DNA of 64,000 nucleotides, taken from positions 9,685-73,684 of the forward strand of contig CAKSDZ010000005.1 of assembly GCA_934446365.1 (NCBI GenBank), written 5' to 3'. The DNA comes from an uncultured Eubacteriales bacterium (GTDB taxonomy: Bacteria > Bacillota > Clostridia > Oscillospirales > CAG-272). Within the stretch, counting starts at the first letter, position 1. The number at the start of each line of letters is the position of its first letter. Below, piece by piece: positions 15,082 to 19,208 of the stretch. The position numbers were made by a program, and so were the translations under genes. The notes beneath the pieces were generated by a model. It ran no database searches. It was not told the DNA's origin and was given only the letters and a program-made list of their open reading frames with translations.

Positions 15082-16143
15082 ATGAAAAAATTCAGAAGAA
15101 TCGGCATTCTGACCTCCGGCGGCGACGCACCCGGTATGAACGCCGTCATCCGTGCGGCAGCCCGCGCGGCTCTTGCCCGCGGCGTCGAGGTTTACGGTAT
15201 TTACGAGGGCTATAAAGGCCTCATTCACGACAATATGAAGCTCTTTTCCTCCCCTGCCGACCTTTGCAACATCATCACAAGAAGCGGCACCATTCTTTAT
15301 TCCGACCGCTGTCTCGAATTCAAAACACCGGAGGGCATGGCGAAAGCCATCGCCACCTGTGAGAAAAATCACATCGACGGCATCATCGCCTGCGGCGGCG
15401 ACGGTACGTTCCGCGGCGCGACGGACCTTTCCAATCATGGGATACCGACCATCGGCATTCCCGGCACCATCGACAACGACATCACCTCCACCGATTACAC
15501 CGTCGGCTTCGATACCGCGATGAACACGGTCGTGCAGATGGTGGACAGGCTCCGCGACACCTGCGAATCCCACGCGCGCTGCGATGTGGTCGAGGTCATG
15601 GGACGCTGGGCGGGACATATCGCGCTTCGTACCGGTATCGCCTGCGGCGCCTCCGCTGTCGCCATTGCGGAAATCCCGTTTGATGAGGACAAGGCCATCG
15701 CGGACATCATCAAGCAAAAGAAAGGCGGCAAACGCTCTTTCATCGTCATCGTTTCCGAAGGACTGGTCGGCTATGCCGAAAAGCTCGCAAAAACGATCGA
15801 AGAAAAAACCGGAATCGAAACCAAATTCGCAAGACTTGCACATGTTCAGCGCGGCGGCTCTCCTACGCTTGTCGACCGGCTTGTTGCCTCTGAAATGGGC
15901 GTCGAGGCCATCGACCAGCTTTTCGCCGGCAAATCCAATCTTGTCGTCTGCAAAAACGACGACAGAATCTGTTGCGTGGATATCGACAAGGCGCTTATGG
16001 TCGACCGCATGTTCAAAAAGAAAATCACCCCCGAAGAGCTTGCTTCGCTCTCGCCGGAGGACAAGGCTTGGATGGAAGCGCGCTGCGCAGACGTTCAGGC
16101 TAAAATGCAGAAGCTTTACGACATCGCAAACGAAATCAAATAA
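15082..16143 (+). CDS. pfkA: ATP-dependent 6-phosphofructokinase
   Basis: 353 aa. GILTSGGDAPGMNA, GGDGT, IPGTIDND, and the MGR motif region. Confidence 0.92.
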   Translation: MKKFRRIGILTSGGDAPGMNAVIRAAARAALARGVEVYGIYEGYKGLIHDNMKLFSSPADLCNIITRSGTILYSDRCLEFKTPEGMAKAIATCEKNHIDGIIACGGDGTFRGATDLSNHGIPTIGIPGTIDNDITSTDYTVGFDTAMNTVVQMVDRLRDTCESHARCDVVEVMGRWAGHIALRTGIACGASAVAIAEIPFDEDKAIADIIKQKKGGKRSFIVIVSEGLVGYAEKLAKTIEEKTGIETKFARLAHVQRGGSPTLVDRLVASEMGVEAIDQLFAGKSNLVVCKNDDRICCVDIDKALMVDRMFKKKITPEELASLSPEDKAWMEARCADVQAKMQKLYDIANEIK

Positions 16144-16152
16144 GGAAAAGGC

Positions 16153-16185
16153 GGCACGGAATTCCGTGCTGTTCTTTTCCTTTTA
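16153..16185 (+). terminator. pfkA rho-independent terminator
   Basis: Perfect palindrome gcacgg-aatt-ccgtgc (16154-16169) followed by tgttcttttcctttt. Confidence 0.6.
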
Positions 16186-17400
16186 GAAAAGGAGAACACA
16201 TGCTTTTCTTTACAGAAAGAAAAGCATCAAAAGAACTGCAAGCCTCCGGCTTGATCATTTGTGCGGACGGCAGCGGTTCGGTGGCGGCTATAAAAGACGG
16301 CGTCCACGCTCGCGGGGCTTCGCGTGATCCGTCAACCGCCGCCCCTATTTTGAATATCGTACCGGAAGGCGCTCACACAGCGCGCGCCTTGCGCCCGCAG
16401 GCGCGGGTTTCTCAGTGGCACAAAACTTTCTGCACGGCGAGTGGTGGCCTGTGCGAGCTTTGCGAGCACTGCAACACCTTCGAGCCGTGGGTATGTGCTT
16501 CCCAGCAGAAGAATGAGAGCCCGAGACGGGAGTCTCGGTGAGTCTTTTGGTGCTTTTCTCCTCAGTGAGAAAAGCACATATCTTCTCCTTTGGCAAAGAA
16601 GAAACGTGTCCTTTTCTTGTCCGCACAAGAAAAGGACGAAAAGAAACCGCAAGCGTACCGCTTGACCGTTTGTGCGAGCCGAGGGCACATTCCGTCGGCT
16701 CCCAGCACGTGTTTGCACTCGTAAGCTCGTGCAATCCACGGCGGAACACGCCGAACGGGCAGCGAGTGCGCTCCGGCAGCCTTGCGCCTGCGGGCGCGGG
16801 CTTCTCAGTGGCACAAACTTCCCGCACGGCGAATGACGGAGAGCGCACGTAAGTGCGCGGTTCCGTCTGTTGGGAGCCGTGGGTATGTGCTTCCCAGTAG
16901 CACGATGAGAGTCCGAGACAGCGTCTCGGTGAGTCTTTTGGTGCTTTTCTCCTCAGTGAGAAAAGCACATATCTTCTCCTTTGGCAAAGAAGAAACGTGT
17001 CCTTTTCTTGTACGGACAAGAAAAGAACGAAAAGAAACCGCAAGCCTTTGGCTTGACCGTTTGTGCGGCCGGCAGCGGTTCGGTGGCGGCTATAAAAGAC
17101 GGCGTCCACGCTCGCGGGGCTTCGCGTGATCCGTCAACCGCCGCCCCTATTTTGAATATCGTACCGGAAGGCGCTCACACAGCGCGCGCCTTGCGCCCGC
17201 AGGCGCGGGTTTCTCAGTGGCACAAAACTTTCTGCACGGCGAGTGGTGGCCTGTGCGAGCTTTGCGAGCACTGCAACACCTTCGAGCCGTGGGTATGTGC
17301 TTCCCAGCAGAAGAATGAGAGCCCGAGACAGCGTCTCGGCGACTCTTTTCGTCGTTTTCTCGTCGGTGAGAAAACGACATATCCTTCTCCTTGATAAAGG
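16186..17400. repeat. Tandem array of three ~400-bp hairpin-dense units (unit starts 16229, 16639, 17030); candidate structured ncRNA or MITE/REP-like element
   Basis: Units 1 and 3 are identical over 267 nt (16261-16527 vs 17063-17329) apart from 1 mismatch. Unit 2 shares only conserved boxes and the hairpin module. Helices carry compensatory changes. All six frames are open and give nonsense-like products. See findings. Confidence 0.85.
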
Positions 17401-17431
17401 AGAAAACACACAAATTTCACAGGAGCAATTC

Positions 17432-17917
17432 ATGTCTCAGACAAAGCAAACAGAAAAAACCAACGTCATGCGGATATTGGACGCCGCGGGAGTCGCGTAT
17501 CGAAGCCACTGCTATGCATCAAGCGGCGCAGTATCCGCCGTAGACCTTGCGTCAGCACTTTCCGCCGATCCCGCCCGCGTTTTCAAAACGCTTGTGACCG
17601 TCGGAAAAACGGGAAACCATTATGTGTTTATGATTCCTGCGGCGGAAGAGCTGAATCTCAAAAAGGCCGCCGCGGCAGTCGGCGAAAAAGCGATCGAAAT
17701 GATCAAACAAAAGGAGCTTCTGCCGCTGACAGGCTACATTCACGGCGGCTGTTCGCCCATCGGCATGAAAAAGCCGTTTCGCACAACGATCCACCGCACG
17801 GCGGCGGATTTTGAAACGATCCTTTTCAGCGCGGGAAAAATCGGCTATCAAGTAGAAATGCCGCTCGCGTCGCTGCAAAAAATCATAAACGTACAAACGG
17901 CGGATTTAATTATATAA
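17432..17917 (+). CDS. ybaK: Cys-tRNA(Pro)/Cys-tRNA(Cys) deacylase YbaK/EbsC
   Basis: The track ORF begins at 17243, inside the repeat. The true start is the ATG at 17432, 6 nt after AGGAG. MRILDAAGV..., TGYIHGGCSPIG are typical of YbaK. Confidence 0.85.
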   Translation: MSQTKQTEKTNVMRILDAAGVAYRSHCYASSGAVSAVDLASALSADPARVFKTLVTVGKTGNHYVFMIPAAEELNLKKAAAAVGEKAIEMIKQKELLPLTGYIHGGCSPIGMKKPFRTTIHRTAADFETILFSAGKIGYQVEMPLASLQKIINVQTADLII

Positions 17918-17993
17918 GTTAAGCACAAAATAATTCCTGCGCAAACACAGCATAATTGCATGTTTCAGTTAGGAGCGCCGGAAAGGAATTCTT

Positions 17994-19208
17994 ATGCAAA
18001 TCAAAAAAATAATAGCGGCTTTTACGCTGCTCGCTCTGCTTTTTACGGTATCCTGTGGAAAAACGCCGCAGGATGCTCCTACAACGTCCTCCGGCACGAC
18101 AGAGCCGGAGACGACTGCCGCCCTTTCGCCGACAGAACAAATACTGGCGGGGATGACAACAGAACAAAAGATCGCTCAGCTTTTGGTAGCGGGACTTGCC
18201 GGTACCGAGGCAGGTGCGGACGGCACATCGGCAGTCGCGGATTACCAGGTGGGAGGCATCATTCTGTTCGGCAGAAACGTGTCGGACAGCTGCCAGCTGA
18301 CAGCACTCACCAATCAATTAAAAGCCCTGAATGGTGACTATATCCCGCTCTTTCTATGCGTGGACGAGGAAGGCGGCAGAGTTTCACGCATGCCGCCCGA
18401 AATCACCGATATTCCCTGCGCATATACCTATGGGAACCTATCAAAGCCCAATCTCTTGACACATCTTGGCAGCACTCTCGGCGCCGAATGTGCCGCATTC
18501 GGTCTCAATCTTGATTTCGCGCCCGTCATGGATGTTTTTTCAAATCCGGATAATACCGTCATCGGTGACCGTTCTTACAGCAGTGTTCCGGATACAGCCG
18601 CATGGGCGGCGGCACTCGTCGCCGGCGGACTTCGGGATACCGGCATTATCGCCGCGGGGAAGCATTTTCCCGGACACGGCGACACCGTGACCGATTCCCA
18701 TACGGAGCTGCCCGTCATCGACAAAACACGCGAAGAATGGAACCAAACCGATGCGGTTCCTTTCCGGGAAGCAGTTCGTTCCGGCATTCCTGTCATCATG
18801 ACAGGACATATTCTAATGTCAAGTTTAGACTCGGAGAATCCTGCTACCCTTTCCCACACCATCGTCACGGAAATTTTACGGGAGGAGATGGGATTCGACG
18901 GAGTGATCTGCACCGACGACCTTACCATGGGTGCGATTTCCAAAACCTATGGTATCGGAGAAGCGGCAGTACGCGCCGTCGCGGCGGGCTGTGATCTGCT
19001 GCTTATTTGCCATGAGTCGGAGAATCTGAAAGCAGCCTATGATGCCCTCTGCGCCGCCGTGGAAAGCGGCAGAATTTCGGAGGAACGCCTGAATGAAAGT
19101 GTATCGCGGATTCTATCCTTAAAAATAGAATATAAGCTGACAAACGATCCGATCGCCATCCCTGATGTGGATGCGCTTAACCGTCAGATTAAAGAAATTT
19201 TGCCGTAA
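17994..19208 (+). CDS. Glycoside hydrolase family 3 beta-N-acetylhexosaminidase-like lipoprotein (NagZ-like)
   Basis: 404 aa. Lipobox LFTVSCG. GH3 N-terminal domain motifs (VDEEGGRVSR, GKHFPGHGDTVTDSH, TDDLTMGA). Confidence 0.85.
   Translation: MQIKKIIAAFTLLALLFTVSCGKTPQDAPTTSSGTTEPETTAALSPTEQILAGMTTEQKIAQLLVAGLAGTEAGADGTSAVADYQVGGIILFGRNVSDSCQLTALTNQLKALNGDYIPLFLCVDEEGGRVSRMPPEITDIPCAYTYGNLSKPNLLTHLGSTLGAECAAFGLNLDFAPVMDVFSNPDNTVIGDRSYSSVPDTAAWAAALVAGGLRDTGIIAAGKHFPGHGDTVTDSHTELPVIDKTREEWNQTDAVPFREAVRSGIPVIMTGHILMSSLDSENPATLSHTIVTEILREEMGFDGVICTDDLTMGAISKTYGIGEAAVRAVAAGCDLLLICHESENLKAAYDALCAAVESGRISEERLNESVSRILSLKIEYKLTNDPIAIPDVDALNRQIKEILP

Follow-up and report, generated by a model that had tools for sequence, protein, structure and literature searches.

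Three tandem hairpin-packed units between pfkA and ybaK of an uncultured gut bacterium: a probable lineage-specific mosaic palindromic repeat

Introduction

In the uncultured Eubacteriales bacterium of GenBank assembly GCA_934446365.1, the 1.2-kb spacer between pfkA and ybaK consists of three head-to-tail units of about 400 bp, each packed with hairpins. The spacer lies within a 64-kb stretch of contig CAKSDZ010000005.1, and this whole stretch is referred to below as the window. A preliminary description of the window had recognized the three units downstream of pfkA, and its coordinates and sequence statements all proved accurate. Here, we describe the family to which these units belong. Probably, the array comprises three copies of a mosaic palindromic repeat that is non-coding and specific to its lineage; this repeat is similar to BOX elements and bacterial interspersed mosaic elements (BIMEs) and has the outline of a MITE (miniature inverted-repeat transposable element). 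By our best reading, this is a new repeat family but a known kind of element, and it belongs to the DNA level rather than being a dedicated structured-RNA gene.

Results

Organization of the array

The outer units of the array are close relatives. A 299-nt direct repeat with 97% identity links unit 1 (16229-16527) to unit 3 (17031-17329), and the sole difference among the 267 positions of 16261-16527 and 17063-17329 is an A at 16267 and a C at 17069. Unit 2 is a mosaic, and the 3' modules of the units are spaced 391 and 410 nt apart. The two conserved boxes each occur in exactly three copies in the window (0.45 and 0.00 expected from shuffles), and no further unit copy was found there with the unit hidden Markov model (HMM). 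Tandem Repeats Finder, run on 15500-18000 down to a score of 30, reported no array, because the mosaic unit 2 pulls the array below the identity threshold.

Independent assemblies carry such arrays. One metagenome contig (L003) reproduces pfkA, units 1 and 2 and the start of unit 3, another (L013) has at least 2.4 units running into ybaK, and a 2.2-Mb contig contains two-unit arrays at two other sites. The array at the pfkA-ybaK spacer is not an assembly artefact.

The first boundary palindrome, hp0, takes its left arm from the T-tract of the pfkA terminator, and the same arrangement was found at other arrays.

Modular anatomy of a unit

Units are 389-411 bp long, contain no conserved open reading frame (ORF), and are built in the order hp0-hp1-hp2-M1-hp3-box B-M2-box C-hp5-hpN, with alternative types for each module. 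The 5' part runs from the hp0 half-palindrome AAAGGAGAA through hp1, the linker GAAAAGAAACC, hp2 and ACCGTTTGTGCG to M1; the middle comprises hp3, box B, CACGGCGA, the M2 arm, GGGAGCCGTG and box C; and the 3' part consists of hp5, hpN, ATAT and then TTCTCCTTT. Neighbouring units are separated by 2-3 nt of variable sequence, and the complete hp0 combines one unit's T-rich 3' end with the A-rich 5' end of its successor, which resembles a ribosome-binding site (RBS).

When the first 50 nt of a unit are compared with the reverse complement of its last 50 nt, 34-41 of 53-55 aligned positions are identical, so that the unit ends in inverted repeats that are imperfect and about 50 nt long. An A/T-rich arm (AAAGGAGAA or TTCTCCTTT) and an 11-13-bp hairpin make up each of these terminal repeats. 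A closing helix between the 5' and 3' ends was considered and rejected: end alleles do not co-vary within units, and in locus L001, for instance, the 5' end is of the GCATCAAAAGA form and the 3' end of the TCTTTTCGTCG form. The uncoupled alleles indicate that the complementarity of the ends reflects the similarity of terminal inverted repeats and not a maintained helix. Between these ends (40-50% GC) lies a GC-rich core (62-64%, compared with 50.5% for the window) that contains at least six short hairpin modules, each with two or three internally compensated alleles.

The allele repertoire differs among modules. Across the family, hp1 is a 12-13-bp hairpin with two alleles, hp2 has three (AAGCC, AAGCG and GAACG), and M1 has two non-homologous types, A and B, with invariant stems and variable loops in type A. 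The M2 arm occurs in at least three types (A, B and C) plus rarer ones. For hp5, other copies have allele Y, TTGAGGC/GCCTCAA, in place of allele X, and three of its pairs change on both sides; hpN has the alleles GC, CG and AC, of which CG is in the copy at 17351-17378. In these terms, unit 1 is composed of hp1 'ATGC', M1-A, M2-A, hp5-X and hpN 'GC'; unit 2 of hp1 'GTGTC', M1-B, M2-B with a GCGCAC-GTAA-GTGCGC arm, and hp5-X; and unit 3 of hp1 'GTGTC', M1-A, M2-A, hp5-X and hpN 'CG'. The helices that had been singled out in the preliminary description were all found where it placed them: the hp2 hairpins CAAGCCTCCGGCTTG, CAAGCGTACCGCTTG and CAAGCCTTTGGCTTG with their compensatory changes, the compensatory pair of hpN arms TGCTTTTCTC..GAGAAAAGCA and TCGTTTTCTC..GAGAAAACGA, and the CACGGC/GCCGTG closing helix together with the GCGCAC-GTAA-GTGCGC arm (Table 1).

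Two further observations concern the variable modules. The loop of M2 type A (16455-16472 and 17257-17274) is a direct repeat GCGAGC-NNN-GCGAGC, the middle trinucleotide of which varies freely among copies (TTT, CCC, TCT, CCT, CTC, TCC, TGT and TTC); one copy has three GCGAGC repeats, and arm type C has the related CGAGC-RAA-GCGAG. In addition, units of L030, L043, L046, L048, L055, L058, L060 and L064 contain extra insertions of about 85-95 nt outside the HMM, either at model positions ~268-275 (the M2 region) or ~370-372 (between hp5 and hpN), and the module repertoire thus exceeds the catalogued types.

Table 1. Coordinates of the array, its modules and its neighbours in the window
Feature	Position	Strand	Evidence, copies and remarks
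Unit 1	16187-16591	+	nhmmer 442-486 bits; terminal inverted repeats 41/53 identical
Unit 2, mosaic unit	16595-16982	+	nhmmer 368-432 bits; identical unit present in locus L003
Unit 3	16986-17392	+	nhmmer 462-512 bits
RBS-like unit starts	16187-16202, 16595-16610, 16986-17001
hp0, junction palindrome of units 1/2, CTTCTCCTTT-GGC-AAAGAAGAAA	16582-16604		copies 16973-16995, terminal 17383-17407
hp1, 5' terminal hairpin of unit 1	16200-16227		12 bp perfect, 4-nt loop; equivalents 16608-16637, 16999-17028
hp2, CAAGCC-TCC-GGCTTG	16239-16253		equivalents 16650-16664, 17041-17055
M1 type A, nested GGCGGC../..GCCGCC, GACGG/CCGTC, CACGC/GCGTG	16261-16385		unit 3 copy 17063-17187
M1 type B, unit 2	about 16672-16778		non-homologous to type A
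hp3 (CCTTGCGCC-NNNN-GGCGCGGG) and box B (TTCTCAGTGGCACAAA)	16386-16424		copies 16779-16817, 17188-17226
Closing helix CACGGC/GCCGTG enclosing variable M2 arm	16433-16489		copies 16825-16881, 17235-17291
Box C, GAGCCGTGGGTATGTGCTTCCCAG	16482-16505		most conserved non-palindromic segment; copies 16874-16897, 17284-17307
hp5, CCGAGAC/GTCTCGG, allele X	16521-16538		copies 16913-16929, 17323-17339
hpN, 3' terminal hairpin GTGCTTTTCTC-CTCAGT-GAGAAAAGCAC	16550-16577		followed by U-rich terminator-like tail; copies 16941-16968, 17351-17378
pfkA, ATP-dependent 6-phosphofructokinase, upstream neighbour	15082-16143	+	ORF; PF00365 on identical protein
pfkA intrinsic terminator, hairpin GGCGGCACGG-AATT-CCGTGCTGTT and T-tract	16150-16186	+	terminator scan
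ybaK, Cys-tRNA(Pro) deacylase, downstream neighbour	17432-17917	+	PF04073

A dispersed family in one species complex

Related loci, 0.64 Mb in total, were gathered through pseudo-proteins of the units, the neighbouring genes and one box pattern. They contain 71 distinct units in 81 arrays of one to four units, at no fewer than 18 intergenic sites as defined by their flanks. The box pattern, with box C as the scan pattern, identified 40 metagenome loci, and a single sample with a coverage of about 12x accounts for at least ten. For example, two forward units lie between the co-directional genes rluD and upp and three between topA and plsX; three stand between an AAA_18 gene and a convergent ABC transporter gene, and two between the convergent glmS and pyrG. 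Between rplT and a SpoU-type methylase gene, two units are antisense to both genes. Arrays are also located upstream of guaA and upstream of pgk.

All hosts belong to one uncultured human-gut 'Clostridiales bacterium' species complex, with flanks that are 88-99% identical. The nearest outgroups, whose pfkA products show 85% and 78% amino-acid identity, share the upstream synteny; no units were found in 36 kb of these outgroups, downstream of pfkA included. The 85%-identity outgroup, which is without the element, has a different gene downstream of pfkA too. In the nearest outgroup (L078:6078-6145), a small hairpin, CGCTTTTC-GCAAA-GAAAAGCG, comes directly after the pfkA terminator, with AAAAGCATCACG next. 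This sequence resembles hp1 and the unit 5' end, ATGCTTTTCTTT-ACAG-AAAGAAAAGCAT CAAAAG; it could represent either the relic of an end or a seed. Plasmid and phage collections searched with blastn and viral contigs scanned by pattern gave no family match. A scan of a genome collection for CTCAGTGGCAC-N40-70-GCCGTGGGTA gave seven matches, with about eight expected by chance; one of the seven (L009) is in coding sequence and the other six are in unrelated taxa. Box B proved too variable for this purpose.

Array borders favour gene 3' ends, and most arrays sit right beside an intrinsic terminator. With the strands of flanking genes assigned by a log-odds model of codon usage that had been trained on Pfam-supported genes, gene 3' ends account for about 26 of about 40 array flanks. 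The T-tract of an upstream terminator forms the left hp0 arm at about 7-9 of 12 independent left flanks as judged by eye (8 of 20 flagged by a script), and the A-tract of a convergent gene's terminator can supply the hp0 arm on the other array border. Orientation is mixed: at co-directional sites, the units are sense in four or five cases and antisense in three, while five or six sites are convergent and one or two divergent.

Reading frames and spurious proteins

A strong RBS-like AAAGGAGAA opens every unit, with an ATG or GTG 5-7 nt further on in the hp1 stem, and gene callers therefore begin ORFs there. One translated unit retrieves 92 'protein' clusters that read through units in different frames; a Pfam domain was found in none of these 92, and pseudo-protein P0005 reads its own two units in two different frames. 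The protein-coding reading was rejected, since the frames differ both between and within copies. The earlier judgement that coding is unlikely is borne out, as public gene callers use different frames of the same DNA in different copies. Its companion claim, that all six frames are open, is loosely true in that long ORFs exist on both strands, none of them conserved among copies. At least 92 public 'hypothetical protein' clusters (P0001-P0092) are translations of this repeat.

Pairing, folding and strand symmetry

Modules were analysed separately, because whole-unit RNAalifold on a MAFFT alignment forced non-homologous modules together and was uninformative. In the 3' region, 97.4% of the cells pair among 45 distinct sequences, compared with 48-61% in slid controls, and the covariation score is 0.218 versus 0.108 in shuffles. 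Five pairs are changed on both sides, in support of the proposal that structure is kept by double substitutions. These compensatory changes are mostly swaps among the two or three existing alleles of each hairpin and do not represent many independent events. The stems of M1-A are invariant, with a covariation term of -0.5.

Individual units fold far more stably than shuffles: as RNA, the z-score of unit 2 is -8.8 and that of unit 3 is -3.1. For unit 2 as DNA, the two strands score alike, at -8.5 (plus) and -8.9 (minus). Across 26 units, the RNA minimum free energy of the plus strand less that of the minus strand has a mean of 1.2 +/- 4.7 kcal/mol. Among single mismatches between Watson-Crick stacks, 13 contexts (18 cells) show G·T and 11 contexts (22 cells) show A·C. 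The stems are thus under equal constraint on either strand. The GTAA loop, noted earlier as GNRA on the plus strand only, is not conserved in the family: the loop reads GTAG five times, GCAG twice, and GTAA and GCAA once each.

Signals for transcription were examined in 15900-17700. No sigma-70-like promoter was found on either strand, and there are 14 terminator-like sites, compared with 3.7 +/- 2.0 in shuffles. The strand symmetry, the variable loop, the missing promoter and the mixed orientations speak against a leader that regulates in cis and against an RNA gene tied to one strand; they are consistent with palindromes at the DNA level, or with hairpins acting in read-through transcripts of either strand. 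Of the two natures proposed for the element in the preliminary description, the DNA-level hairpin element fits these results, while the functional RNA is disfavoured by the lack of a promoter, strand-symmetric folding and mixed orientations.

Mosaicism and whole-unit changes

Modules combine almost freely. All six combinations of M1 and M2 types were found, as were all combinations of M2 and hp5. At locus L012 of a strain of the same species, the two units are A/B and B/A recombinants of the A/A and B/B units in the window. One pair of modules is an exception: hp1 'ATGC' never occurs with M1 type B (none of 12 M1-B units, while all 21 ATGC units are M1-A), and all other module pairs are present in every combination. 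This avoidance could be residual linkage or an incompatibility.

Arrays change in length by whole units. Orthologous pfkA-ybaK sites measure 417, 813 and 1219 bp, and orthologous rplT-SpoU sites 392 versus 811 bp. No empty site was seen, the array being present in every orthologous comparison among species of 88-94% flank identity. Comparison of 20 left and 27 right distinct array ends disclosed no direct repeat common to the flanks, that is, no target-site duplication. Neither a solo end nor a longer element with the same ends was found within the 0.64 Mb of loci. For units at orthologous sites, the identity from one species to another is 82-89%, compared with 79-82% at the third codon positions of pfkA and ybaK; with a divergence near the third-position rate, overall constraint is weak and concentrated in the ends and stems.

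One flank can be joined to different partners across an array, depending on the assembly: pfkA to ybaK, pfkA to guaA, pfkA to rplT (inverted), and pgk to ybaK. Such joins lie at L017:8957-9444, L002:5063-5601, L075:3666-5000 and L037:6998-7472, and one of them joins a 563-aa gene to pfkA. They are either real inversions or translocations between copies, or chimeric joins of short-read assembly.

Tests against known classes

In agreement with the earlier statement that no known RNA family could be recognized, Rfam covariance models gave no family for the units. At E up to 10, the segment 15000-18500 produced only chance snoRNA and S15 matches of 17-25 bits; Rfam 15 had no match in the whole window at the gathering threshold; and in five other loci with 14 units, the one match was to the L20 leader, a positive control. 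ARAGORN found no tRNA or tmRNA. A ribosomal protein L20 leader lies upstream of infC (L016:7632-7777 and L047:8349-8494) and scores 40.1 bits (E = 2e-4), below the gathering score of 58.7; in this lineage, it probably represents a true but diverged member.

Of the features that define MITEs, small non-coding size, terminal inverted repeats and strong secondary structure were all found; target-site duplication, insertion polymorphism and AT-richness relative to the host were not, the last being a listed MITE criterion (PMC3049150). BOX-type features, namely a modular composite build, variable tandem copy number and complementary end modules, are all present. The units depart from repetitive extragenic palindromes (REPs) and BIMEs in having hairpins of 15-33 nt with about ten different sequences, in fixed order and head to tail. 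An ORF-less group IIC intron was also considered and rejected, with no Intron_gpII or group-II-D1D4 match at E up to 10; the GTGCG motif lies about 95 nt inside the element boundary, and the boundaries are at hp0 and hpN.

Discussion

How the family may have arisen and what it may do

If the array is, as we think probable, made of copies of a mosaic palindromic repeat, its history may be outlined as follows. The family would have spread by a burst in the ancestor of the species complex and would now be essentially immobile. Unequal homologous recombination would grow and shrink the arrays, and gene conversion would shuffle the modules. The hairpins may be a property of the DNA, as single-strand or cruciform palindromes, or of read-through transcripts from either strand, and selection for forming hairpins, or correction by template switching, could maintain the palindromes. 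The effect on the host is most likely passive: between pfkA and ybaK, the array may weakly hinder transcription in both directions and stabilise 3' ends, a proposal made because each unit end is a hairpin with a U-rich tail on the outgoing strand.

Several points weigh against this reading. The diversity of paired columns is about half that of unpaired columns (0.081 vs 0.176, p=0.002; 0.148 vs 0.216, p=0.02), which indicates some constraint and is unexpected of pure junk, and long non-palindromic stretches (for example GTGGCGGCTAT and box C) are invariant across species. As no transposase, target-site duplication or empty site was found, mobility is unproven. For MITEs, REPs and BOX elements alike, it is atypical to have a core rich in GC, units of 400 bp and arrays that run strictly head to tail with spacers of 2-3 bp. 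The alternative joins across arrays may be assembly chimeras. Finally, the terminator or insulator effect is deduced from sequence features, and the tails are interrupted U-tracts.

Alternative explanations

The alternative that survives best, which we nevertheless regard as unlikely, is a novel structured non-coding RNA of about 390 nt, arranged in tandem modules, transcribed by itself or processed from read-through, and acting in trans or as a scaffold. The very stable folds, the hairpin alleles with double compensatory changes, stems that vary less than loops, several invariant unpaired boxes, and the lack of a conserved ORF would all suit such an RNA, as would the invariant G·U found solely on the plus strand in some helices (34:66 and the outer hp3 pairs). 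However, the region has no promoter-like site and its terminator-like sites are weak; units lie in either orientation relative to neighbouring genes; and both strands fold equally, with about equal G·T and A·C mismatches and no conserved GNRA loop. The covariation comes down to two or three alleles per hairpin, and its term for M1-A is negative. Truncated and module-swapped copies are tolerated, divergence is near the synonymous rate, and the family is limited to one species complex.

We give rather little credence to the idea that the units are working parts of an undescribed hairpin-recognising system, either as substrates of a recombinase acting on single-stranded DNA (HUH-type or similar) or as a genus-specific RNA of about 390 nt. 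In the recombinase version, T-tracts after terminator-like hairpins would be targeted and head-to-tail arrays built; in the RNA version, a many-hairpin RNA of about 390 nt would be released from read-through transcripts. In either version, the conserved non-palindromic boxes GAGCCGTGGGTATG and GGCGGCTATAAAAGACGG and the 9-2-9 palindrome TTCTCCTTT-GG-AAAGGAGAA would be putative protein-binding sites.

It also seems improbable that the units are an active MITE, or the relic of a hairpin-dependent single-stranded DNA transposon, moved in trans by a transposase encoded elsewhere in the genome. Such an element might target the T-tract after a terminator-like hairpin, and the unit 3' end would recreate the site and so lead to tandem arrays. 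Terminal inverted repeats of about 50 nt on a multi-copy, intergenic, non-coding unit of about 400 bp speak for this explanation. Contigs that break at units, array ends that abut terminator T-tracts, the terminator-like hpN and T-rich tail at the unit 3' end, and the absence of the element from the outgroup loci are in keeping with it. Against it stand the missing target-site duplication and empty site, the lack of a solo end or longer same-ended element in the sampled loci, a core that is GC-rich and not AT-rich, and the negative searches of plasmids, phages and viral contigs.

Known classes are very improbable, whether a group IIC intron lacking an ORF, a ybaK leader of the riboswitch or T-box kind, a gene for a small protein, or a duplication made in assembly. 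In their favour, group IIC introns likewise stand directly after terminators, a hairpin plus TTT precedes a GTGCG motif (hp2, then ACCGTTT/GTGCG), the GAGCCGT start of box C recalls domain V of group II introns, and an RBS-like AAAGGAGAA with ATG or GTG opens each unit and has ORFs called from it. Against them, no group II or other Rfam match emerged at E up to 10, GTGCG lies about 95 nt downstream of the element boundary (the boundaries being at hp0 and hpN), the downstream gene does not dictate orientation, copies differ in reading frame, and independent assemblies including the 2.2-Mb contig carry such arrays.

Implications

The mosaic palindromic repeat adds an unannotated family to an abundant, uncultured human-gut Clostridiales lineage. 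About 1% of a genome of about 2.2 Mb could belong to it, a figure extrapolated from sampled sites and not a genome-wide count. Its practical consequences are twofold: the repeat pollutes protein databases with at least 92 clusters of spurious 'hypothetical proteins', and it breaks or mis-joins short-read assemblies, in which one flank is joined to different partners. Inverted copies could also drive real inversions. For RNA discovery, the family is a caution, as DNA palindromes with exchangeable alleles mimic compensatory changes and produce strongly negative fold z-scores; counting G·T against A·C mismatches and comparing plus- and minus-strand folding energies discriminates cheaply between RNA and DNA palindromes. 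If arrays do turn out to be bidirectional terminators or insulators, unit copy number would tune read-through between housekeeping genes such as pfkA and ybaK.

Comparison with known systems

Among elements of comparable size, the large structured bacterial non-coding RNAs that comparative genomics has brought to light, such as OLE, GOLLD, ROOL, HEARO/omega RNA and raiA are likewise several hundred nucleotides long, rich in hairpins and sometimes multi-copy. The family described here differs from them in having no Rfam match, no strand-specific signal, a distribution limited to one species complex, and exchangeable modules. Group IIC introns, with a ribozyme size of about 400 nt, occur in multiple copies directly downstream of intrinsic terminators. 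The position beside terminators is shared, whereas the units have no match to domain V/VI or D1-D4, lack GUGYG...AY boundaries, occur in both orientations and possess terminal inverted repeats.

MITEs such as Correia/NEMIS, RUP, ERIC and Nezha are also small, non-coding, strongly structured, multi-copy and intergenic, with terminal inverted repeats. In contrast to them, the present units have shown no target-site duplication, empty site or autonomous partner, are not AT-rich, and form regular tandem arrays. The REPs and BIMEs of enterobacteria and the REPIN/RAYT systems are extragenic imperfect palindromes in species-specific mosaics, located at gene 3' ends and between convergent genes, with proposed roles in termination and mRNA stabilisation; single REPs are GC-rich, 20-40 bp long, alternate in orientation and are linked to a RAYT transposase. 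Mosaicism and a preference for gene 3' ends are common to both, but the architecture differs, as here about ten different hairpins follow one another in a fixed order within a 400-bp unit that repeats head to tail.

The BOX elements of S. pneumoniae and S. suis are modular and highly base-paired, with complementary terminal modules and tandem modules (PMC3049150). They are intergenic and co-transcribed with their neighbours, and large copies make ORFs on both strands and supply start codons (PMC3049150). Furthermore, they are confined to very close relatives and show past proliferation with little current movement (PMC3049150; Croucher et al. 2011). The present family differs in that the whole 400-bp unit repeats, while BOX repeats the 45-bp boxB, and in its GC-rich core, its alternative compensated alleles for each module, and the absence of any target duplication seen. 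The relation is one of analogy, with no homology or membership claimed, and by that measure BOX is the closest analogue: both are modular composites with complementary ends and strong pairing, both carry ORFs on both strands, and both are restricted to a lineage.

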